Below, piece by piece: positions 10,144 through 51,701 of a stretch of 64,000 nt of DNA. The position numbers were made by a program, and so were the translations under genes. Positions within the stretch are counted from its first letter, which is position 1, and every line of letters starts with the position of its first letter. The notes beneath the pieces are model-generated. The model saw only the letters and a program-made list of their open reading frames with translations. It ran no database searches and was not told where the DNA came from. This stretch comes from a virus. The stretch lies in IMG/VR virus record IMGVR_UViG_3300022226_000003, positions 13,535 through 77,534 of that record, one strand, 5' to 3'.

Positions 10144-13100
10144 ATGGTAGACAATGTAAATACACAAATATATGACGGTCGTCTTAATAGGGCCGCATTA
10201 TTGAGATTGTATGAAAATAATACCATCAGTAAAGTAGATATTGTGATGGATGGACATGTATTCAGACTTGATAAGCTGATTAAGAATTCAAAGATGACTT
10301 CGACTAGCTTCAAGAGTTTTGAAATAAATTTGAATAGGGAACTGAAACGAACTTATAGAGAAGTTTTCTCGGTTTCTAAAAGATCACTTTTGGACTTAGC
10401 TAGCGACCAAGTCTCTTATACGTATCAGAATTTAGAAGCAGGTGTTAGTAAAGTTTGGCGCACAAAAAGACCTCAAAGAAGAATTGCTGAGGAAATTGTC
10501 TTGAAACAACCCTTGCATTCCAATAAGACTCTGGAACAGGGCTGGGTAGGTATAAGCGCGGGTGAGAGAAAACGATTATCGTCAGTTATTCGTAAAGGAA
10601 TTGCTGAAGGAGATACTCCGGAAGTTATTGCCAGGAATGTACGTAAAGGTAACATTCATAAGATAACCAGGAACCAATCTAGAGCTCTTGTAACTACTTC
10701 CATAACAAGTGTTGCAGCACAAGCTGATCATGAAGTCTATGCTGCAAACGGAGACGCCCTGAAAGGTTGGCAGTATGTGGCCGTCTTGGACTCCAGGACC
10801 ACGCCTGTGTGCTCGCATCGTGATGGCCATATTTACCCCATAGGGGACACGAAGCATCTGCCTCCGGCCCACTACCGCTGCAGGTCGACAACGACACCTG
10901 TAGTAAAAAGTTGGGATGATTTAAGTAAATTAGAAGGTGTAAATCAAGTAAGAAAAAGAAATCTTAAAAAATTGAACCCTGCGCAAGTGGCATTTTACGA
11001 TGGATTGACACCTTTAAAAGAATCATATAATTCATGGTTATTAAGACAGCCCACAAATATCCAAGTGAAACATCTAGGTAGTTACCAGAAAGTAGATCTA
11101 TTCAATAACGGTAAGTTATCTGTAGATAAATTCACCGCACCTTCGGGTGCTGAATTGGGAATACGGCAATTGAGACAATTAACTGATTCCGAATATACAG
11201 CTCCCAGTGACACTAAAAGATTTGCACTTGCTAAAGAAAGATTAGATGCAATGCACTTGGGCGCAAGTCGCCCTGAAGATTTTATTGATGATATCAAATT
11301 GACCAATACCCTGAGGGATTATTATGTCTTACAATCTGCTGAATTAGACGGGACATTATCTTTAACAAATTATAGAGGTAATTTAATAGGTACTAAGAGA
11401 CGAACTAAAAATTTGGTCTTAAACAAATTACCACGAGAAGATCAGCTATTGTTCAATCCTATAACTGGTAGATACGAAGATTCTAGATTATTCCAACCTG
11501 CCCCGGCTGTCTTGGAAAATAATTTAAAACTTGTTAATGAAAGTCTTGTATTGAAACAGGCTGATAAGGATTATATCATTAAATTTATAGCCAGTCTAGA
11601 AAGCCGAATGAGTGTTAATGAGAGAGCTGTTGTAGCAGATAACTTAAGAATACTATTTACAAGATACCGCAAAAACCCTGAAGTATGGACTAACTTTAAA
11701 GCAGTTTCTCAAGCTCAAATCAAATTTGATGTAATGAATGTTTCAGACTCTATCGAAACACAATTGAGAAAAGACGCCAATTTGCTTAAGAAATTGAAAC
11801 AAGACAATTACATAGACCCTGTATTAGGTGCTGTGCAATTAGATGATTTATCGAATAATTTTATAAATAATATTTCTAAAAGAAATCGATGGGAAGATAA
11901 AGTAGCACCTAAGTTAGCTAGACAACTAAGAGATATCTTTGACAGAAATATCCCAATAAGATTGCAGAGAAGAATTCCCGATGATAAATTACAACAATTT
12001 TATTTAAGATTTGCACATAGACTTAGCTTAGCAGATAGTCCTGATGTTGATAATTTAGCTGTCTCTTTAGGGCGCGATCTATATAATATGGCTGAACTCA
12101 ATGGTACTAAGCAACAATGGCATACTCTGGGTAAAAAGATAATTGAATCTAACAATAAGTTTTTTAAATTAGAAACATTCGGTGTCCAAAAACGCAGGAT
12201 GAAAAGTAGATTAAGTGGTCAATATTTTGGACCTTACTATGATACTTTTTCGTATAATATAAGAATCACTGATCCCAGGATTCAGGAGTACTCAAGACTT
12301 AATAGAAGTATTGATGTAGGTCTCCGTATAGGTGTCACTGATCCAAAGAATAGATTACTTTTTAGAGAAGGCTATAAAACTTATTTTTATAAAGATAAAT
12401 TAGGTGGCTATGTAGATACCCGAATTCCAATCACTTCTTCATCTGCATTCAGAGATTTTCCTGAAGAATTTATTGATAAAGATATGGTGAGTGCTTTAAA
12501 TTGGGCCGCTAAGTCTGAATTTAAGGTTGATGAAGATTACTATGATTTTGTAAATAAATTATTAAATTTTGCTGATGACCGTGGTCGTGCTCAATACTTC
12601 GATGACTTGAATCAGTATCGACGTTACATAATTTCTCGTGGAGATTCCTATGAAAGATTCAAATCCATGCAATGGTTTAGGGATCGTAATATTGCTTTCT
12701 CTAATCACCCTTTCATTGATTCTAGAGCACGGATCTATGATCGTGGATTTATTAGCCCTCAGTCTGGAGAAACTTTTAGGCCTTTCCTCAATACTTCGTA
12801 TGAGAGAGCTTTAGGCGAAATTGGTTTTAAAAATTTTAATGACCAAATAGGGTCTTTCTTAGGAGGATTGGATGACTTCTTTGAGGGTCGTTTCAACTCG
12901 CTAAGTATCACAGGTAGGCAAAAGATTGCAAATAAGTGGCGTCCAGAGTTAGTTAAAATTGGCAATCACATGATTCGTGGAAAGCCTAATGATATTAGAG
13001 CAATATTGCAATCAGATATTGTGGCTAAGATTGAAGGTGAAGAACTAGGGAAGTTTCTAAGATTTGCAATAGAGACGGCTAAGATTGATAACTTTATGAA

Positions 13101-14763
13101 AGGTGATTATAAAAATCTTTCTAAACTTAATAGTTATAAAACAGCATTAGCGCTAGAGCAAGATGCCTCTTCATCAGGTGCGCAAATAATTGCTTTAACA
13201 ACTAGAAACAAACAATTAGCTGAATTGAGCAATGTTATTCCAACTAACCAGAAGAAAAGATTATACGATGAGATAGCAGCAGCTACCTTCAATGATTCTA
13301 GATTTAGACAGTTAAATTTAAGGTTGGGAATAAATGAGAAAGATTTACGAAAAGCTGCAAAAGCACAAAATATGGTTACATTCTATGGTGCTGGCGATCG
13401 CACAGGTATTCTGAATGTTGAACGAAAACTGGCTTCAGCTTTGGAAAGACAGCCTGGAACATTGGTGGTCAAGGCTTCCCAGAGAGATGAAATCTTGGGT
13501 GAAATTTCCGCCAGAATAGCTAGGTTTGAAAAGTTCGATCCAGAAACTGCAGCTGAGCTTGCAGTATTAAGGACAAATGTTAGAGATATCTTTAATAAGG
13601 GTCTAAATCCTGGCCAAGATATCATGGATGATCTATATTTCTTGTCACCACAAACTAAAGATTTCTTAGAAAAGATGTCTTTGAGTTATGATAAAGTTAT
13701 CACACCGAACGATTTTAAAGAAATTGCTTCAATTATGAGTGAATACCTAGCAGAACAGACTCCTGTACTTAAAACATTCACGAAGTTTTTAGGTCGTCTT
13801 GCGGAAGATTTCCTTGAAAACGCCAGACCATCTAAGAGTGATTTTGATTGGAAAAGTATTTTTAAAGTAAAGCTATTAGGTACACGTAAGGATGGATATA
13901 AATTACCTGACAGAATAGGTGAAATATTGGGAGTAAATACTTCAAAATCTGTGAGTGAATCTTTTCTAAGTAAATTTGGTTTCTGGAAGCCCAATGGGTT
14001 TCTTGATGAATTAATATACGGCACCAGAGATCCTTTAAATAGACGGATCGGTGCCAAGTACTTTAAAATTGATATTGCAAAAATTAAGAAAATTTATGAA
14101 TTAGAAATTTTCAGAGCAAATAAATTACCCAAACGTTGGACAAATGTACCTTGGGTTAATTTTGATAAAAAGACACTAGAACAAAACTTTACATCAACAA
14201 TAGAAACACGGTTATTTTACAGAGATAAAGATGGAAATCCTATTACAAATATTATTCAAATAGATAATAAGAGTGAAGCTACATGGTGGGAACAATTCAT
14301 AAATAATTCTGGCAATATAAATGACATTGCAGATACAGCTAAGGCTAGAACAGCTTATGCTGTAAATGGAACTCATTCTAATGACGCAGTACTCGTCAAG
14401 AGATTTCATATCTGGGGTAGAGAAAATAATGTAAATACAGCGACTGTTCATGATGCTTTCTTCACTAATATTGGTGAGATGTTGGAAGCTAAACAAGCAT
14501 TACGGAATATCTACGCTAAGGCAGCCGAATCGAATGTAATCAAACAAACATTAGATGAAATGCGCGCTAGGGGTTTTCCGAAGGAATTATATGATAAGTA
14601 TTTAAATGAAGCAATTGAGATAGGGCTGATACCGATACCCGGTAAATCTAGGATTGGTGGAAGGCTTCTAACTGATACGGATATATTAACACGCGAGGAT
14701 ATTTTAAGAGATATAGATGAGGTTTTTGAAGACGACCTTAGCTGGTATGGTGTTGGCGGGTAG
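10144..14763 (+). CDS. MuF (SPP1 gp7-like) head protein fused to a T7-like single-subunit RNA polymerase; candidate virion RNAP
   Basis: N-terminal MuF motifs WQYVAVLDSRTTPVC and PPAHYRCRST; C-terminal RNAP motifs DSRARIY, QDASSSGAQ (A), RKAAKAQNMVTFYG (B), NGTHSNDA, VHDAF (C). Confidence 0.9.
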   Translation: MVDNVNTQIYDGRLNRAALLRLYENNTISKVDIVMDGHVFRLDKLIKNSKMTSTSFKSFEINLNRELKRTYREVFSVSKRSLLDLASDQVSYTYQNLEAGVSKVWRTKRPQRRIAEEIVLKQPLHSNKTLEQGWVGISAGERKRLSSVIRKGIAEGDTPEVIARNVRKGNIHKITRNQSRALVTTSITSVAAQADHEVYAANGDALKGWQYVAVLDSRTTPVCSHRDGHIYPIGDTKHLPPAHYRCRSTTTPVVKSWDDLSKLEGVNQVRKRNLKKLNPAQVAFYDGLTPLKESYNSWLLRQPTNIQVKHLGSYQKVDLFNNGKLSVDKFTAPSGAELGIRQLRQLTDSEYTAPSDTKRFALAKERLDAMHLGASRPEDFIDDIKLTNTLRDYYVLQSAELDGTLSLTNYRGNLIGTKRRTKNLVLNKLPREDQLLFNPITGRYEDSRLFQPAPAVLENNLKLVNESLVLKQADKDYIIKFIASLESRMSVNERAVVADNLRILFTRYRKNPEVWTNFKAVSQAQIKFDVMNVSDSIETQLRKDANLLKKLKQDNYIDPVLGAVQLDDLSNNFINNISKRNRWEDKVAPKLARQLRDIFDRNIPIRLQRRIPDDKLQQFYLRFAHRLSLADSPDVDNLAVSLGRDLYNMAELNGTKQQWHTLGKKIIESNNKFFKLETFGVQKRRMKSRLSGQYFGPYYDTFSYNIRITDPRIQEYSRLNRSIDVGLRIGVTDPKNRLLFREGYKTYFYKDKLGGYVDTRIPITSSSAFRDFPEEFIDKDMVSALNWAAKSEFKVDEDYYDFVNKLLNFADDRGRAQYFDDLNQYRRYIISRGDSYERFKSMQWFRDRNIAFSNHPFIDSRARIYDRGFISPQSGETFRPFLNTSYERALGEIGFKNFNDQIGSFLGGLDDFFEGRFNSLSITGRQKIANKWRPELVKIGNHMIRGKPNDIRAILQSDIVAKIEGEELGKFLRFAIETAKIDNFMKGDYKNLSKLNSYKTALALEQDASSSGAQIIALTTRNKQLAELSNVIPTNQKKRLYDEIAAATFNDSRFRQLNLRLGINEKDLRKAAKAQNMVTFYGAGDRTGILNVERKLASALERQPGTLVVKASQRDEILGEISARIARFEKFDPETAAELAVLRTNVRDIFNKGLNPGQDIMDDLYFLSPQTKDFLEKMSLSYDKVITPNDFKEIASIMSEYLAEQTPVLKTFTKFLGRLAEDFLENARPSKSDFDWKSIFKVKLLGTRKDGYKLPDRIGEILGVNTSKSVSESFLSKFGFWKPNGFLDELIYGTRDPLNRRIGAKYFKIDIAKIKKIYELEIFRANKLPKRWTNVPWVNFDKKTLEQNFTSTIETRLFYRDKDGNPITNIIQIDNKSEATWWEQFINNSGNINDIADTAKARTAYAVNGTHSNDAVLVKRFHIWGRENNVNTATVHDAFFTNIGEMLEAKQALRNIYAKAAESNVIKQTLDEMRARGFPKELYDKYLNEAIEIGLIPIPGKSRIGGRLLTDTDILTREDILRDIDEVFEDDLSWYGVGG

Positions 14764-35210: not shown

Positions 35211-35228
35211 GTTGACAAGGATGTCAAT
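35211..35228 (+). promoter_or_regulatory. CsrA/RsmA-type hairpin TTGAC-AAGGAT-GTCAA
   Basis: ACAAGGATGT with GGA in the loop, upstream of ORF 35252. Confidence 0.55.
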
Positions 35229-36618: not shown

Positions 36619-38877
36619 ATGAAAAGAAAATTAATTGAGTCTTTGACACTAAGACTTAAAAAAGAAGTGGCTCCTCAGAACCCTATTAAGTATTTGAAGA
36701 ATTACGACGTTGAGCAATATATTGATATTGTAATTTCTGTTATGTATTTATACACAAGACCAAAGAAAAACAATATTGTTCCTATTTTAGTTACTGAAGT
36801 AATAACTGCAATAGGGCATAGAGTTCGGAGTGAATTGAAACAAAAAAGAGATTCTGCCCTGGCTGCTAAGACCGGGGCCTTTATATTATACTCATTTGAA
36901 CTGCTTGATATTACATATATTAAACTAGCACCGGGACGAAGAGGGCACGCAACTTACATACTAGAGGTAATAAATGATAACGTTATTTGCGAACTTTGGC
37001 AAAATCTAGGCGCTAAAGATATTGAAAAAGTGCCCTCATTGTATCCCTATTTACCCTGGAAAGGTACCAGACATGCCACCGGATTGACTATGGTAAAAAC
37101 GCAAAATAAAGAGGTTCTAGAAAAGATAAAACCAGAGACACACGGTATGCTATTCGATTGTTTAAATAGAGCTCAACAAGTAGGTTGGAGAATAAATGAT
37201 GAAATATATAAATTACATCTATGGGCTTTACGAAATAAAACAGACGCTTTTGCGGATATTTGGGAGCAACATGACCCAGAAGCTAAAGCCACAAAGCTCA
37301 GAGAGGCAAGAGCTGTTGGAGATATTGCTCGTAAATTTATTGGGAAAACCTTCTACCATCTCTATTACTACGATTTCAGAGGTCGTAAGTACGCTGCAAC
37401 AGCATATCTGCATGAGCAGGGGGCTGACTTGGCACGTGGACTTCTGTTACGAGACGATAAAAAAGCAATTGGTGTTAAAGGTTATTTCTGGCTCTTAGTG
37501 AGTATTGCTTCAAATTGGGCAGGAGAAGCCGGTAGAGAAGATAGTTTAAAGACTGATAAAATACCTTTACAAGAACGTTACCAGTGGTCTTTAGATAATG
37601 AAGAGATTTTATTATCATATGCAAAAGCTCCTAAAGTTAATCAAGGTTGGATGCAAGCGGATAAACCATGGCAATTCCTCGCTGGCTGTTTTGAATTAGA
37701 AAAATTTAGAGATTATCAATTAAAATTAGAAGAAAAATTAAACGGTTTGCATTGCAGTGAGGAAATGTGGTATGGATATGAATCTCATCTTGAGTGTTTT
37801 ATTGACGGGAGTAATAATGGGAGTCAGCATCTTGCTGCGCTCACCCGAGACGAAATTACAGCGCCTCATGTTAATCTTGTACCTCTGGACTACCCCGGCG
37901 ATTTATACAATTATGTGGCTGAGAATGTATGGGAAGCCCTAGGTAAGCAGGTTGAGATGTTTTCTATTGATGAAATAAAAGACTGTGAAGAGTTTATTGA
38001 CAATCTCGTCAAAATAAAGAAAAAGATAAACAAAGCACCCACAAGTGAAATCAAAGCAAAATACATAAATGAAATTCAAGAATTAAAATACAATAACCTT
38101 GAACTGATGACAATGGCTGCACCAATATATTGGTTCAGAATTACGGATGCAAAAGAACGAAGGAAAATAGTTAAAAGAAATACAATGACGTTGCCTTATG
38201 GAGGAACACCCTACGGGCTGGGCCAGCAGATAATCGATGATGCTAAAAAACATGGTATTGAGCAATTGTTATATATGGAACATAAATGGGGTGCTTTCTT
38301 GGGTAGAGAAATATTTGAGAACTGTAAAATATCTCTTACGCGACTTATGAAGCTCTTACTCATATTTGAAGCTGCTGGAAGGCAAGCTGAATTGGAAGGT
38401 AGATTTCTGAGTTGGACGGTCCCTTTAACAAACTTCCCTGTTGTTCAACATTACACTGAAGGGATCGTAAAGCGGGTGTATGTCCAATATGGACCACCCT
38501 CTGGACAAAGGACTACTACGGGATATTTCAAAAATACTCTGCAACTACACGTATGTTTCCTTGAAGAAACGGTGCCTTCAAAAAGAAAGCAATCGCAAGG
38601 TGCTTCGCCTAATGCTATCCACAGCCTGGATGCGGCGCATTTGACATTAACGGTATGTAAAGCAAATTTTCCTGTGACTACTGTCCATGATTCATTCGGA
38701 TGCTTACTCGCGGATATGCCTGATTTATTCAGGATTGTTAGAGAAACCTTTGTGGAATTACACGAAGTAAATCCCCTAAATTCAATTATGAAGGATATAC
38801 AAGGAGATATCTCAGAATTGGAAATGGGTAACTTAGATATTAATCTTATATTAGAATCGGAGTATTGTTTTTCATGA
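36619..38877 (+). CDS. T7-like single-subunit RNA polymerase (752 aa)
   Basis: DFRGRKY, IDGSNNGSQH (A), RKIVKRNTMTLPYG (B), PNAIHSLDA, VHDSF (C); C-terminal YCFS resembles T7 FAFA. Confidence 0.95.
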   Translation: MKRKLIESLTLRLKKEVAPQNPIKYLKNYDVEQYIDIVISVMYLYTRPKKNNIVPILVTEVITAIGHRVRSELKQKRDSALAAKTGAFILYSFELLDITYIKLAPGRRGHATYILEVINDNVICELWQNLGAKDIEKVPSLYPYLPWKGTRHATGLTMVKTQNKEVLEKIKPETHGMLFDCLNRAQQVGWRINDEIYKLHLWALRNKTDAFADIWEQHDPEAKATKLREARAVGDIARKFIGKTFYHLYYYDFRGRKYAATAYLHEQGADLARGLLLRDDKKAIGVKGYFWLLVSIASNWAGEAGREDSLKTDKIPLQERYQWSLDNEEILLSYAKAPKVNQGWMQADKPWQFLAGCFELEKFRDYQLKLEEKLNGLHCSEEMWYGYESHLECFIDGSNNGSQHLAALTRDEITAPHVNLVPLDYPGDLYNYVAENVWEALGKQVEMFSIDEIKDCEEFIDNLVKIKKKINKAPTSEIKAKYINEIQELKYNNLELMTMAAPIYWFRITDAKERRKIVKRNTMTLPYGGTPYGLGQQIIDDAKKHGIEQLLYMEHKWGAFLGREIFENCKISLTRLMKLLLIFEAAGRQAELEGRFLSWTVPLTNFPVVQHYTEGIVKRVYVQYGPPSGQRTTTGYFKNTLQLHVCFLEETVPSKRKQSQGASPNAIHSLDAAHLTLTVCKANFPVTTVHDSFGCLLADMPDLFRIVRETFVELHEVNPLNSIMKDIQGDISELEMGNLDINLILESEYCFS

Positions 38878-45432: not shown

Positions 45433-45768
45433 ATGTATAGTACGTTAACTGTTAAAGGAGTTCTTAGTATGAAAATGCCGTCTGCTAAATCAGGCTATAA
45501 GCCGAAATATAAGTATATGGTGGAGCATTGCAGAACCATCAATGGCAAGATGCTAATTAAGCATTGGATAATGGATAGCTATTCTCAAGCAAGAGACTAT
45601 GCTCACAAGGAACTTCGAAGTGGACTGGGAGGTGATATTTTCAAAGCAAATTCTCTCATCTATACCACAGCATCCTACCGAGAAGGGGTAAGAAAGACAA
45701 AATTCAGCCGTGTATTTGGAGGTCGTTTCGAGCATGTGCTGGTTTTTCGTGTTGAACTTTATCAATGA
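45433..45768 (+). CDS. Hypothetical protein (start may be downstream)
   Basis: Fills the operon gap. Confidence 0.5.
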   Translation: MYSTLTVKGVLSMKMPSAKSGYKPKYKYMVEHCRTINGKMLIKHWIMDSYSQARDYAHKELRSGLGGDIFKANSLIYTTASYREGVRKTKFSRVFGGRFEHVLVFRVELYQ

Positions 45769-46232
45769 TAATTCCGAAAGTAGACAGTAAGCTACCTCGA
45801 TATAATAACGGTAAATGGAAATTTTGCGAACAATTAGATCCCACGAAGTATGTGGGATTTCTATATGTAATTCGAGACAATTACTTAGAACGTTTTTATT
45901 TTGGAAAAAAGAATTTTAAAGTAAAAAGAGGTAAGTTTAAAGGTAAGGAGAGTGATTGGCGTAAATACAACACTTCTTCACCACTCCTTAAAGAACTTTT
46001 TATTGAAAGAGGATTTGAAGAGTTTGAATTCATCGTACTTGAACAATATAAAACACAAGGCACGCTGTCTTATGCAGAAACATGGACTCTATGTGAAGTT
46101 GAAGCACCGACTAATGTTAAATGGTATAATACCAGAATTGAAAAAGTATCGTGGACCGTCAAGGAGCCTATTTCGTCTAGGCACAAAGAAAGACTCCTAA
46201 AAACAATAGCACTGGAGGAGTTTAATGAATAA
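45765..46232 (+). CDS. GIY-YIG-like endonuclease
   Basis: GFLYVI...YFGKK...WRKY..SS...E...YN pattern. Confidence 0.7.
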   Translation: MIIPKVDSKLPRYNNGKWKFCEQLDPTKYVGFLYVIRDNYLERFYFGKKNFKVKRGKFKGKESDWRKYNTSSPLLKELFIERGFEEFEFIVLEQYKTQGTLSYAETWTLCEVEAPTNVKWYNTRIEKVSWTVKEPISSRHKERLLKTIALEEFNE

Positions 46233-47914: not shown

Positions 47915-49855
47915 GTGCAATACGCTGACTTACCGAAAATAATAACACCATGGAGCACTGTTGGTTATCTGACTTACAAACGGACCTACTCAAGAAAGTT
48001 TGAAGAAGAGGAAGACTTACTAGCTGCAGACGCTCCCACAGAAGAATTTGAAGATACTATATTAAGAATCATTAATGCATGTGATGAACAATTTAATTGC
48101 GGATTCACCAAACATGAAGAATATAGATTAGCTGAATATTTCTTAAAATTAAAAGGGTCAGTGGCCGGTAGATTTTTATGGCAAGCCGGGACAAAAACAG
48201 TAGATCGATTAGGCCTACCTTCTCTACAGAATTGTGCTTTTGTGGTAATTGATAGCCCGGTAAGACCCTTCACTTGGGCTATGGATATGTTAGCTGTCGG
48301 TGCAGGTGTCGGGTATAATTTACAAAAACACCATATCGACAAACTACCCACAGTTAGACCGTGGTTCAAAGCGCCTACACGTTATAATGATGGCGGTGCT
48401 GACTTCATAGTACCTGATTCAAGGGAAGGTTGGGTAAAGTTATTAGGTAAGGTGCTAAAAGCTGCCTTTCTGTCGAGCAGCCCCGAAAATGGGACTTTTA
48501 CATTTTCAACACAAATGATTAGGAGTAAGGGCGCACCCATTAAAGGATTTGGTGGCACAGCGAGTGGACCAGAAGACCTAGTTTGGGGGATCTCGCAAAT
48601 CTCCGCCTTATTGGAAAAGCGTAGAAATAAAAAGATAAGACCGATAGATGCTCTAGATATTATGAATATAATTGGTCATATTATTGTGGCCGGAAATGTT
48701 AGGCGTTCAGCCCAAATAGCAATTGGCGATCCTGACGATGTTGAATTCTTGCTAGCAAAAAGATGGGACATGGGCACGATACCTAAATGGCGAGCAATGT
48801 CAAATAACAGTGTAGCTTGTGAAGATATTAATGATTTGCATCCTTATTTTTGGCAAGGGTATGAAGGCAGGGGAGAACCTTATGGTTTAATAAATTTACC
48901 TTTGTCGAGATCTTGCGGAAGGTTAGGAGAAACTTGGTATAGCGACCCAGATGTAGAAGGCTATAATCCTTGTGCGGAGCAATCGCTTGTCCCCTATGAG
49001 ACTTGCTGTCTCTCCGAAGTATTCTTGCCTAATATAGAGTCAGAAGCGGAGTTGATGGATATCTGTGAGCTCCTTTATAGGATTAATAAGCATGCAATGA
49101 CACTGGGATCACATTTAAAAGAAACAGAAAAAGTTGTTCATGAAAATTTTAGAATGGGGATAGGGATGACGGGTATCCTTCAAGCCAGCGAAGAGCAAAT
49201 TAGTTGGCTATCTGAAACGTATAGATACTTACGACGTTTCGATGTTAAGTATTCTCATAAACGCGATTTACCGAGGTCAATTAAACTTACAACAGTTAAA
49301 CCAAGTGGAACACTATCCCTACTTCCCGGCGTGACTGCCGGAATACACCCAGGATTCTCTCAGTATATGTACCGGCGAATCACCATAGCCACTGAACACC
49401 CTTTAACGGCGATGTGCAGAGAAAAAGGTTATCCTGTTGAATTTAAGAAAGAGTTTGATGGAAGTGAGAATTATGGGTCATGCATAGTCACATTTCCTTT
49501 TAAATACTCAGAGGGTACCATTCTAGCTGAAGAAATGACGGCAATAAAACAACTTGAGTGGATTCGTAAATTACAAACGGAATGGTCTGACAATAGTGTA
49601 TCCTGTACTGTCTATTACAGTTCTGAAGAGATACCTGAAATAAAGAGATATTTAGAAAAATATTACAAGAGTCATCACAAAAGTCTTTCCTTTATGTTGC
49701 ATCAAGATCATGGCTTCGAACAAGCTCCTTTTGAGAGTATAACAAAAGAAGAGTATGATGCCCTTGTCGCAAAAGTGGAACCAATAACTGAAATTGATTC
49801 CGCAGATTTTGAGCTAAATGATGAATGTGTGGGCGGAATGTGTCCCGTGAGATAA
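47915..49855 (+). CDS. nrdJ: Class II (B12-dependent) ribonucleotide reductase
   Basis: GNVRRSA, NPCAEQ, TTVKPSGT, C-terminal CVGGMCPVR; no beta subunit present. Confidence 0.9.
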   Translation: MQYADLPKIITPWSTVGYLTYKRTYSRKFEEEEDLLAADAPTEEFEDTILRIINACDEQFNCGFTKHEEYRLAEYFLKLKGSVAGRFLWQAGTKTVDRLGLPSLQNCAFVVIDSPVRPFTWAMDMLAVGAGVGYNLQKHHIDKLPTVRPWFKAPTRYNDGGADFIVPDSREGWVKLLGKVLKAAFLSSSPENGTFTFSTQMIRSKGAPIKGFGGTASGPEDLVWGISQISALLEKRRNKKIRPIDALDIMNIIGHIIVAGNVRRSAQIAIGDPDDVEFLLAKRWDMGTIPKWRAMSNNSVACEDINDLHPYFWQGYEGRGEPYGLINLPLSRSCGRLGETWYSDPDVEGYNPCAEQSLVPYETCCLSEVFLPNIESEAELMDICELLYRINKHAMTLGSHLKETEKVVHENFRMGIGMTGILQASEEQISWLSETYRYLRRFDVKYSHKRDLPRSIKLTTVKPSGTLSLLPGVTAGIHPGFSQYMYRRITIATEHPLTAMCREKGYPVEFKKEFDGSENYGSCIVTFPFKYSEGTILAEEMTAIKQLEWIRKLQTEWSDNSVSCTVYYSSEEIPEIKRYLEKYYKSHHKSLSFMLHQDHGFEQAPFESITKEEYDALVAKVEPITEIDSADFELNDECVGGMCPVR

Positions 49856-49908: not shown

Positions 49909-50181
49909 GCACAAGGACGTGCATTTTTATTAGTAGTGGCAGGCGGGGCTCGGTAGAACTGGGTTGATCCCGTAGTGGCAGGAAATGGTGTGGCAGGCAT
50001 GGAGGGTTGGCCTGGGCGAGTTATGGTGTGATCGGTCTGGAGCGGATTGGTTGGAAAGGGTGTGGCAGGCAAGGTTGGCTAGGTAAGGAGCCGCGAGACG
50101 CGAATTGGTTGGAAAGGGCATGGCAGGCGCGGCATGGTGTTGTCAGGGCAAGCTAAGACTAGGCAAGACAAGCCATGGATT
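49909..50181 (+). ncRNA. G-rich (GGY-NN)n array 1 with a 5' GCAC-AAGGAC-GTGC hairpin; candidate guide RNA array
   Basis: 5-nt period; GGCAGG at 49938, 49977, 49992, 50064, 50122; non-coding on + strand. Confidence 0.7.
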
Positions 50182-50266: not shown

Positions 50267-50872
50267 ATGGCGATTTCAATTAAACCAATTAAAAGGCAGA
50301 AAGTATCTTTTCATATTGTTGGGACTACTCCCATGATTCAACATAAATGGGCTGAAAAAGCTATCATGCAAATGCGTGAAAAGCATGCAGGTAAGAAAAC
50401 TCGAGCACGTGATATTAGAAAACCTGAAGAAGAATTTCAAAATGCGTGTTATCTTACTGATAGTGATGAATATGGCTTTCCTCTAATGGGTTTTAAGACA
50501 TCACTTATTACGGCAGCGCATAAAGACATCGGTATTGAAAAGACTTTGGTGAAAAAGTCTATCTTTATTGAAAGTGATGATTCAAATCTTGTCGGTAAAA
50601 TGGAATGTTCTGAACCTATCATGCGTGAAGATTGTGTTCGAGTAGGGGCAGGTAGTACTGATCTTAGATATCGCCCTGAGTTCAGAGAGTGGGCTGCACA
50701 AATTTCTTTTGAAATTGACGGTGAAATGCTCACAGTAGAAGACCTTATTAATTTAACAAATCGAGCTGGATTTGGAGTAGGTTTGTGTGAATGGCGTCCT
50801 GAGAAAGGTGGTGAATATGGTCGTTTTAAAGTCGATACTACACAACCTATTACTACTGAAGATCTGGTGTAA
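50267..50872 (+). CDS. Stand-alone RAMP/Cas7-like protein
   Basis: N-terminal strand FHIVGTTPMI; FPLMGFKTSL helix; C-terminal G-rich loop AGFGVGLCEWRPEKGGEYGRFKV; AGGAG RBS. Confidence 0.7.
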   Translation: MAISIKPIKRQKVSFHIVGTTPMIQHKWAEKAIMQMREKHAGKKTRARDIRKPEEEFQNACYLTDSDEYGFPLMGFKTSLITAAHKDIGIEKTLVKKSIFIESDDSNLVGKMECSEPIMREDCVRVGAGSTDLRYRPEFREWAAQISFEIDGEMLTVEDLINLTNRAGFGVGLCEWRPEKGGEYGRFKVDTTQPITTEDLV

Positions 50873-51345
50873 TGAAAGCACGATGGAAACAAGGCTTTCA
50901 TGCTAAAGTCTCTGCAGATATTGCTGCTACTGAATTTGAAAGAATTCGTCAAAAGAATGGCGGTAATTTAGAAGCACCTTTAGTTCATGATGAAATTTCA
51001 AAAAAGAGAAATCCTTTACACAACACAGTAGAATGGAATGATTCTATAGCTGGTAAAGAGTATAGGTTATATCAAATTAGAAATATGTTACGTGCTATTG
51101 AAGTAATATATCTTGAAAATGATATTCCTACGCCTTCTCGACTTTTTGAAGTAATTTCAATAAAACCAGAAGCTTCTCCTAAAATGAATGTCTATAGAAC
51201 ATTAGAAGATATTCTAGCTGATCCCGAGCAAAGAAAGCAGCTCTTAATGAGAGCAAAAAGAGAACTTGCAGCATGCCGTAAAAGATATAAAGATCTAACA
51301 GAACTTTCAAATGTATTTGATGCAATTGATAGTATCTTAGATTAG
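50872..51345 (+). CDS. Helical partner protein of the RAMP-like gene
   Basis: TAATG coupling; NPLH..VEWND..A..YRLYQIR motif. Confidence 0.65.
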   Translation: MKARWKQGFHAKVSADIAATEFERIRQKNGGNLEAPLVHDEISKKRNPLHNTVEWNDSIAGKEYRLYQIRNMLRAIEVIYLENDIPTPSRLFEVISIKPEASPKMNVYRTLEDILADPEQRKQLLMRAKRELAACRKRYKDLTELSNVFDAIDSILD

Positions 51346-51355
51346 TTTATATTGT

Positions 51356-51549
51356 GATGACAAGGACGTCATCTTAAAGGCTTGCCGAGGATAGGCGTGG
51401 TATTGTTAGGCGTTGCAGGCTTGGACTGGCATAATTGGACTAGGCGTGACAGGGGTCGCGAGGCTTGACATGGTACGGCAGGCGAGGTGAGACGTTAAGG
51501 GGCATGGTGGCTTTCGTTGTGACTTGACATGGTACGGCAGGCGAGGTAA
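51356..51549 (+). ncRNA. (GGY-NN)n array 2 with a 5' GATGAC-AAGGAC-GTCATC hairpin
   Basis: 5-nt register from 51379; junctions at 51414, 51477, 51536; exact 25-nt repeat at 51464 and 51523. Confidence 0.72.
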
Positions 51550-51573: not shown

Positions 51574-51701
51574 GCACAAGGATGTGCATTTATTCAGGGA
51601 AATACTTAGGCGCAAAACTCACAGTGCTGAGGATGCGGTGGGCGGCAACCTGCGAAGAACCTTTGCCGAGGCATTTGGACCTAGGTGTTTCCCTAAATAA
51701 A
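51574..51701 (+). ncRNA. GGA hairpin followed by a structured RNA with a ~21-bp closing stem
   Basis: TTATTcAGGGAAATACTTAGG / CCTAGGTGTTTCCCTaAATAA enclosing two internal hairpins. Confidence 0.6.

Follow-up and report, generated by a model that had tools for sequence, protein, structure and literature searches.

Organization of the locus

The window analyzed here is a stretch of 64,000 nucleotides taken from a 77.5-kb phage record (IMGVR_UViG_3300022226_000003). The phage is an AT-rich uncultured siphovirus with a GC content of ~38%, every long ORF lies on the + strand, and a sequence of ~30 nt is identical at both ends of the record. The region of interest, 49931-50181, is preceded by a ribonucleotide reductase gene (47915-49855) and followed by a gene encoding a 201-residue protein, behind which lie a gene encoding a 157-residue protein and a second periodic tract. 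The genes around the locus are replication genes (primase-helicase, ribonucleotide reductase, and ligase) and not cas genes: none of the nine flanking genes scanned resembles cas1, cas2, or any other cas gene, and no direct-repeat/spacer structure of the CRISPR kind was found at the tracts. A BLASTN search with the region as query returned no match among 50,697 phage records. The features discussed below are collected in Table 1.

Table 1 Features of the locus. Coordinates are those of the window, except for the source record; array and unit assignments are predictions.
Feature	Coordinates	Strand	Description
Source record	13535-77534 (bases of the record that form the window)		77.5-kb IMG/VR phage; complete according to CheckV
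Fourth hairpin	35212-35227
Hairpin	49909-49922	+	GCAC-AAGGAC-GTGC, then T-rich run; just upstream of array 1
Putative vrRNA array 1	49938-50181	+	From periodicity, GGY-pentamer parse against shuffles, and pentamer frequencies
Array 1 opening junction	49938-49941	+	GGCA
Array 1 unit	49942-49995	+	54 nt, canonical 5k+4; 10 pentamers + GGCA
Array 1 unit	49996-50067	+	72 nt; 4-nt slips at 50001 and 50030; breaks 5k+4
Array 1 unit	50068-50125	+	58 nt; 4-nt slip at 50073; breaks 5k+4
Array 1 last unit	50126-50181	+	Open-ended; degenerate scaffold
vipr	50267-50872	+	201 aa; predicted lone RAMP/Cas7-like RNA-binding protein; profile against PDB 36pp
vap-like gene	50872-51345	+	157 aa; probable accessory gene; start overlaps the vipr stop codon (TAATG)
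Hairpin	51356-51373	+	GATGAC-AAGGAC-GTCATC; upstream of array 2
Putative vrRNA array 2	51379-51549	+	From parse against shuffles and periodicity; all unit lengths 5k+4
Array 2 unit	51379-51417	+	39 nt; ends TGCA
Array 2 unit	51418-51451	+	34 nt; ends GACA
Array 2 unit	51452-51480	+	29 nt; GGCA
Array 2 unit	51481-51539	+	59 nt; 11 pentamers + GGCA
Array 2 terminal pentamer pair	51540-51549	+
Hairpin	51574-51587	+	GCAC-AAGGAT-GTGC, then T-rich run; after array 2; terminator-like

The protein genes between the arrays

A profile built from the family of the 201-residue protein matches one PDB entry, 36pp_D (SUSP1 Vipr protein), with an E value of 1.1e-13, and the single sequence matches SUSP1 Vipr with an E value of 1.3e-7 in phmmer. 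SUSP1 was not among the organisms listed as matches when the phage collection was searched with this protein by tblastn. The AF2 model of the protein (pLDDT 85.6) has Csm3/Cas7 proteins, including type VII Cas7, as its top Foldseek matches, with a probability of 1.00. Residues H17, R138, D177, W178, and R179 of SUSP1 Vipr align to H26, R136, E175, W176, and R177 of the window protein, with an Asp to Glu change at E175. The residues that hold G1, G2, and Y3 are invariant over 24 relatives, except for W176, and the G-loop (GFGVGLCEWRP) and the thumb (RYRP) are conserved. The alignment and the predicted fold identify the product as a Vipr protein in which the RNA-contacting residues are kept.

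Vipr is a minimal RAMP protein, with an RRM core, a G-loop, and a thumb, and belongs to VIPR (Viral Interference Programmable Repeat), a CRISPR-related system for RNA-guided DNA silencing in phages that was first described in 2026 (bioRxiv 10.64898/2026.04.26.720920 and.720927). According to the VIPR preprints, a vrRNA consists of 9-16 GGY/NN pentamers, and each pentamer is bound by one Vipr protomer that holds G1, G2, and Y3 and presents N4 and N5. The string of NN bases pairs with dsDNA while every third target base is skipped, and rival phages or satellites are silenced (bioRxiv 10.64898/2026.04.26.720920 and.720927). In SUSP1 Vipr, W178 stacks on G2 of the GGY triplet (VIPR preprints).

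The relatives of the 201-residue protein (45-58% identity, with one partial match at 38%) were used to fetch 26 related loci, and a homologue of the 157-residue protein adjoins vipr in 23 of them. The pairing also occurs in Gordonia and Mycobacterium phages. The AF2 model of this second protein has a pLDDT of 90.3; its N-terminal ~115 residues are weakly similar to winged-helix DNA-binding domains (Z 5-6.3; Foldseek E > 0.1) and are followed by a long C-terminal helix. It matches no Pfam family. Vap proteins have been described as DNA-binding (bioRxiv 10.64898/2026.04.26.720920), and judging from the model, the gene probably encodes a winged-helix Vap, the conserved partner of vipr. We note that vipr and vap homologues are present in more than 30 Mycobacterium and Gordonia phage records, from cultured actinophages, in which they are annotated only as hypothetical protein. 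At one of the related loci (L029, Gordonia phage ODay, MW534375.1 10343-11608), a 213-nt gap splits vipr and vap, and the pair is located among tail genes.

Pentamer periodicity of the two arrays

Array 1 consists of 43% G and 15% C, with a GC skew of ~0.5. The autocorrelation of G peaks at lags of 5, 10, and 15 (0.35, 0.33, and 0.28), and the period-5 power was matched by none of 500 shuffles. A dynamic-programming parse into GGY pentamers scores 64.2, compared with 9.6 ± 4.9 in 300 shuffles (~11 SD), and 28 of the 50 parsed units are strictly GGY, against 9.6 expected. Array 2 behaves in the same way, with G autocorrelations of 0.30, 0.29, and 0.20 at these lags, a parse score of 43.1 against 4.6 ± 4.4 in shuffles (z ~9), and 18 strict GGY units out of 35. 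The parse was fitted to the model, and under it the pentamer frequencies of array 1 are G.93, G.67, Y.79, N, and N, the information content of the window units at positions 1-5 is 1.33, 0.65, 0.47, 0.24, and 0.14 bits, ~55% of the units are strictly GGY, and position 2 is A in 21%. The two arrays are the only period-5 tracts in the genome; other G- or C-rich windows are coding and have a period of 3. Small ORFs overlapping array 1 were considered as coding sequences and rejected, because the period of the array is 5 and not 3.

The arrays do not appear to be structured. Array 1 folds no more stably than its shuffles (z = 0.15), and array 2 has no stable structure when compared with shuffles (z = -1.4). 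Hammerhead ribozymes separate the vrRNAs in some VIPR types (VIPR preprints); a search of Rfam with the arrays, both at the gathering threshold and at E <= 1, returned no family and no hammerhead ribozyme. The invariant ~40-nt 3' pseudoknot tail that follows each repeat tract in type II VIPR was not found either, and the window units abut at GGCA with no stable or conserved structure.

A preliminary description of the locus, made from the sequence, had read array 1 as triplet-plus-NN pentamers starting at 49942, 50034, and 50147, and all of its strings and coordinates are correct. Its proposal that these pentamers form guide RNAs agrees with the VIPR code, and the grammar it set out anticipated the published one. 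It had also taken GGCAGG, found at 49938, 49977, 49992, 50064, and 50122, as the mark that delimits units with spacings of 39, 15, 72, and 58. This hexamer occurs five times, compared with ~0.3 copies expected from base composition by our own estimate for the array 1 stretch. The positions and spacings hold, whereas the split into units of 39 and 15 nt probably does not: at 49977 the hexamer is best taken as part of the pentamer register (GGCAG, followed by GAAAT), so that the first unit would be 54 nt in length and this copy is probably not a guide boundary. The tetramer GATC at 50030-50033 looks like a decayed junction, because the sequences on its two sides (49985-50004 and 50023-50042) share 75% identity.

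The 54-nt and 59-nt units contain 10 and 11 pentamers, respectively, and several units of array 2 contain 5-7, which is under the published range of 9-16. Array 2 terminates 14 nt past its last junction, like the arrays of many relatives. Compared with those of relatives, the window arrays are partly decayed: strict GGY is found in only ~55% of their units, and in array 1 all but one of the four units have frame slips or lack a closing junction. Some of the guides may therefore be non-functional.

Guide junctions in related phages

G-rich tracts adjoin vipr in many of the 26 loci and consist of near-perfect runs of GGC-NN or GGT-NN pentamers, with up to ~100 units. The arrays go with vipr in phages of 38-62% GC. 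For the comparison of arrays, a set of 37 related phage loci was used. Across 112 units bounded by GGCAGG, the pentamer frequencies are G.95, G.89, Y.94, N, and N, much cleaner than in the window, and the information content at positions 1-5 is 1.64, 1.41, 0.66, 0.05, and 0.03 bits. At position 3, A is rare (3% of the relatives' units).

Among GGCAGG spacings of <= 120 nt in the relatives, 147 of 212 are of the form 5k+4 (4 modulo 5). Most of them are 49-64 nt, with 49, 54, 59, and 64 the commonest values, and the commonest lengths of guide units are 49-59 nt. From this spacing and the pentamer frequencies, it follows that a guide consists of k pentamers and one 4-nt GGCA. Equivalently, the last pentamer, GGCAG, shares one base with the next GGCNN. 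About half of the relatives' arrays start no more than 5 nt from a junction, and about half end 9 or 14-15 nt past the last one. Two AT-rich relatives (L023 and L025) have a GTT-NN scaffold, yet 13 of their 14 intervals between GGCA units are of 5k+4 length. Among the NN positions, only the pair immediately preceding the junction shows mild conservation in the family (0.26 and 0.46 bits). One figure legend in the VIPR preprints describes 'staggered' arrays, in which the vrRNAs come from positions overlapping by 1 nt, so that the end of one is the start of the next (bioRxiv 10.64898/2026.04.26.720920, fig. S18 legend). The 5k+4 spacing, the array ends, the GGCA kept within GTT scaffolds, and the wording of this legend support the view that GGCA marks guide boundaries. 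The comparison and the literature therefore speak for the delimiter proposed in the preliminary description, although the punctuation appears to be the 4-nt GGCA and one of the hexamers, at 49977, is probably no boundary.

W176 of the window Vipr (codon 50792-50794), at the position of SUSP1 W178, is replaced by M in 10 relatives (L014, L022, L023, L025, L034-L037, L042, and L045). Position 2 of the pentamer is T-rich in nine of these ten M forms (T 0.31-0.85, compared with 0-0.32 in W forms), L014 being the exception, a trend that is confounded by genome GC and shared ancestry.

Origin and turnover of guides

The preliminary description had noted that units of array 1 have duplicated 3' ends, and these duplications are real. 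In the last four pentamers, 7 of 8 NN bases agree between the units that end at 50064 and 50122, as does an odd GAA scaffold, and ATTGGTTGGAAAGGG is present at both 50046 and 50104. Array 2 has a comparable pair, in the units ending at 51477 and 51536, again with 7 of 8 NN bases shared; the likeness belongs to a repeated block extending across the junction. In the relatives, sharing at this level is found in 5 of 345 within-locus pairs (1.4%), three of which are adjacent units. These figures mark the shared ends as local duplications and not as a general handle. One relative (L018) contains a tandem duplicate of a whole guide, with an NN identity of 0.875.

Guides had further been proposed to arise by duplication and point mutation rather than by spacer capture, with faster change expected at NN than at the triplet positions. 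The local duplicates in the window and in L018 fit the duplication part of this proposal. On the other hand, the mean NN identity is 0.33 between guides within an array and also 0.33 between guides of different phages, and for most guides no paralogue is detectable. Orthologous guides, grouped into 12 clusters, showed changes in 18 of 274 NN columns (6.6%) and 16 of 411 triplet columns (3.9%), only a slight excess at NN (p = 0.15), in a comparison that the selection threshold of the clusters biases against NN change. Close relatives (L010, L015-L018, and L024; L034-L045) carry collinear subsets of guides and differ from each other by insertion, deletion, or replacement of whole guides. An origin by duplication and point mutation is thus only partly supported, because most guides lack a paralogue and orthologues change little at NN. 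The exclusion of spacer capture fits the absence of cas1/cas2-type neighbors, which does not prove it.

We note that the turnover of guides between close relatives resembles that of CRISPR arrays, and no adaptation genes were found among the neighbors examined.

A broader reading is possible, and we put it forward tentatively, as we hold it to be more doubtful than not. GGCA would be the universal guide boundary in this Vipr clade, kept even where GGY has become GTT; guide repertoires would turn over by junction-mediated duplication, loss, or replacement of cassettes rather than by point mutation; and the scaffold would co-vary with the residue that stacks on G2, W going with GG and M with a T-rich position 2. 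If true, this would supply three things not made explicit in the preprints: a signal for processing, a mechanism of evolution, and a residue that determines specificity.

Searches for targets

No self-targeting is reported for the published VIPR systems (bioRxiv 10.64898/2026.04.26.720920). When the window guides were compared with their own genome in a mismatch-tolerant search, no self-target was found above shuffled-guide nulls. Mismatch-tolerant comparisons of the window guides with the relatives' loci, and of 99 guides from relatives with the window genome, likewise gave nothing above shuffled nulls. The databases were searched with exact patterns skipping 1 nt. With such patterns, no match was obtained for the 59-nt guide (22 informative bases) in IMG/VR, JGI metagenomes, or GTDB genomes, for the 54-nt guide (20 informative bases) in IMG/VR or JGI metagenomes, or for nine pentamers of the 58-nt unit (18 informative bases) in IMG/VR. 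The 54-nt guide had one match in 596 Gb of genomes, in a Hyphomonas MAG. This match was rejected as a target and taken as a chance hit, because ~1 match would be expected at random and the skipped positions coincide with codon position 2 instead of being wobble-aligned.

Interpretation and alternative readings

Taken with the neighboring genes, the tract at 49938-50181 is very likely one of the two vrRNA arrays of a phage VIPR system, laid out as array 1, vipr, the probable vap, and array 2. By analogy with SUSP1 and the published work, the array would be transcribed, and each pentamer would be bound by one Vipr protomer, which would hold G-G-Y and present the two N bases as a filament assembles. 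The string of NN dinucleotides would then pair with dsDNA, skipping every third base, and silence a competing mobile element. In the Vipr clade of the window, the guides appear to be arranged head to tail ('staggered') without structured tails, each probably consisting of k pentamers followed by a single 4-nt GGCA that would shift the register by one base and mark the boundary. The literature suggests that the RNA may be processed at GGCA.

The closest known counterparts appear to be the 'staggered' VIPR systems, as far as the legend of fig. S18 describes them (bioRxiv 10.64898/2026.04.26.720920). In both, Vipr is the only RAMP protein, a vap or vap-like gene adjoins it, and the GGY-NN guides are tail-less and placed head to tail, with a one-base overlap at the boundary (in the window, GGCA followed by G). 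The window differs in its degenerate scaffold and in having some units off register; the likeness is drawn from the legend text, and the junction sequence GGCA is that of the window and its relatives. Type II VIPR of Escherichia phage SUSP1 (PDB 36pp; vap1; four vrRNAs) has a homologous Vipr with conserved residues for G1, G2, and Y3, the same order of array, vipr, vap (in the window, the vap-like gene), and array (with one vrRNA upstream and three downstream in SUSP1), the same pentamer code, and the same lack of self-targeting (in the window, of self-targets above shuffled nulls). In contrast, the vrRNAs of SUSP1 are ~100 nt in length with a ~40-nt 3' pseudoknot tail, whereas the window units are 29-72 nt and tail-less, and the similarity between the two Vipr proteins is seen only by phmmer (E 1e-7) and the PDB profile search (E 1e-13). 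The backbone of class 1 CRISPR systems (Cas7/Csm3 on crRNA) shares the RAMP fold and the binding of one protomer per RNA segment of fixed length. VIPR differs from it in a period of 5 rather than 6 nt, in having two informative bases out of five, in the lack of repeat-spacer arrays and cas genes, and in being phage-encoded.

Within the VIPR reading, the locus could be a relic, in which the protein is intact and array 1 is a largely decayed tract of pseudo-guides that no longer silences anything. The slips at 50001, 50030, and 50073, the decayed GATC junction, and the open-ended last unit of array 1, with GCT, GAC, and GCC scaffolds and A-rich NN positions, would be expected of such a tract, as would the share of strict GGY units and the lack of targets in the searches run. 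However, the periodicity of array 1 still stands far above that of shuffles, Vipr and Vap are intact with key residues kept, and other AT-rich relatives have non-GGY scaffolds throughout. We consider a relic unlikely, though it deserves consideration. It is far less probable that the tract is a sponge RNA for a protein unrelated to Vipr, such as CsrA/RsmA (a sponge of the CsrB/RsmZ type) or a TRAP-like ring protein. Array 1 has about ten GGA motifs, and the flanking hairpins carry ACAAGGAYGT, which agrees with the CsrA SELEX consensus. These GGA motifs lie outside hairpin loops in an array with no stable fold, Rfam gave no match at E <= 1, the conserved unit is GGY and not GGA, with A so rare at position 3 in the relatives, and the arrays travel with vipr over a wide range of GC content.

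A DNA-level element, namely a replication origin or an R-loop-forming G-rich tract, a G-quadruplex, or a primase hot zone, is just as improbable. The location among replication genes, the strong GC skew, and the regularly spaced GG runs are what such an element might show, but the relatives' arrays follow vipr and vap whatever the neighbors are, including the tail genes in Gordonia phage ODay. Nor would an origin account for units the size of guides, for the variability of two positions in each pentamer, or for the RNA evidence published for homologous loci. TRAP-like, Hfq, Rho-loading (antisense C-rich), R-loop origin, G-quadruplex, and Chi-cluster readings had been dropped because the adjacent gene matched Vipr. 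Least probable of all is a CRISPR-like array that gains units by spacer capture. The gain and loss of whole cassettes in collinear order between close relatives recalls such an array; there is, however, no repeat-spacer structure and no cas1/cas2-like neighbor, and under the VIPR code the NN strings of the guides are non-contiguous copies of their targets and therefore cannot be excised protospacers.

VIPR is a newly described form of RNA-guided DNA recognition that has been proposed to be older than CRISPR. The locus very likely gives VIPR one more complete example, from an uncultured, AT-rich siphovirus, and leaves the known picture unchanged. Together with its 37 relatives, it provides comparative data on GGCA punctuation (5k+4), on the turnover of cassettes with occasional tandem duplication, and on the drift of the scaffold from GGY to GNY or GTT.

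Hairpins and other features of the genome

Four hairpins in the genome have the common loop AAGGAY, and their stems differ yet remain paired. Three of the four bracket the arrays. The one just upstream of array 1 is possibly a terminator, a processing site, or a promoter. AAGGAY hairpins are absent from the relatives' VIPR loci and thus probably serve this phage as punctuation, in the form of a terminator, a promoter, or a processing site, rather than belonging to VIPR.

Directly 3' of array 2 and its hairpin, a 28-nt inverted repeat (51589-51701, 82% complementary) surrounds a GC-rich core of ~57 nt and may form a structured RNA; it had no Rfam match at E <= 1. A 155-aa ORF among the replication genes (45765-46232) matches homing-endonuclease PHROG families. 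Elsewhere in the window, a 1539-aa head-morphogenesis protein (10144-14763) has an RNA polymerase domain embedded at residues 857-1092 (phrog_414), which suggests a virion-packaged RNA polymerase, and a separate 752-aa T7/N4-like RNA polymerase is also encoded (36619-38877). The tape measure is a protein of 2541 aa.
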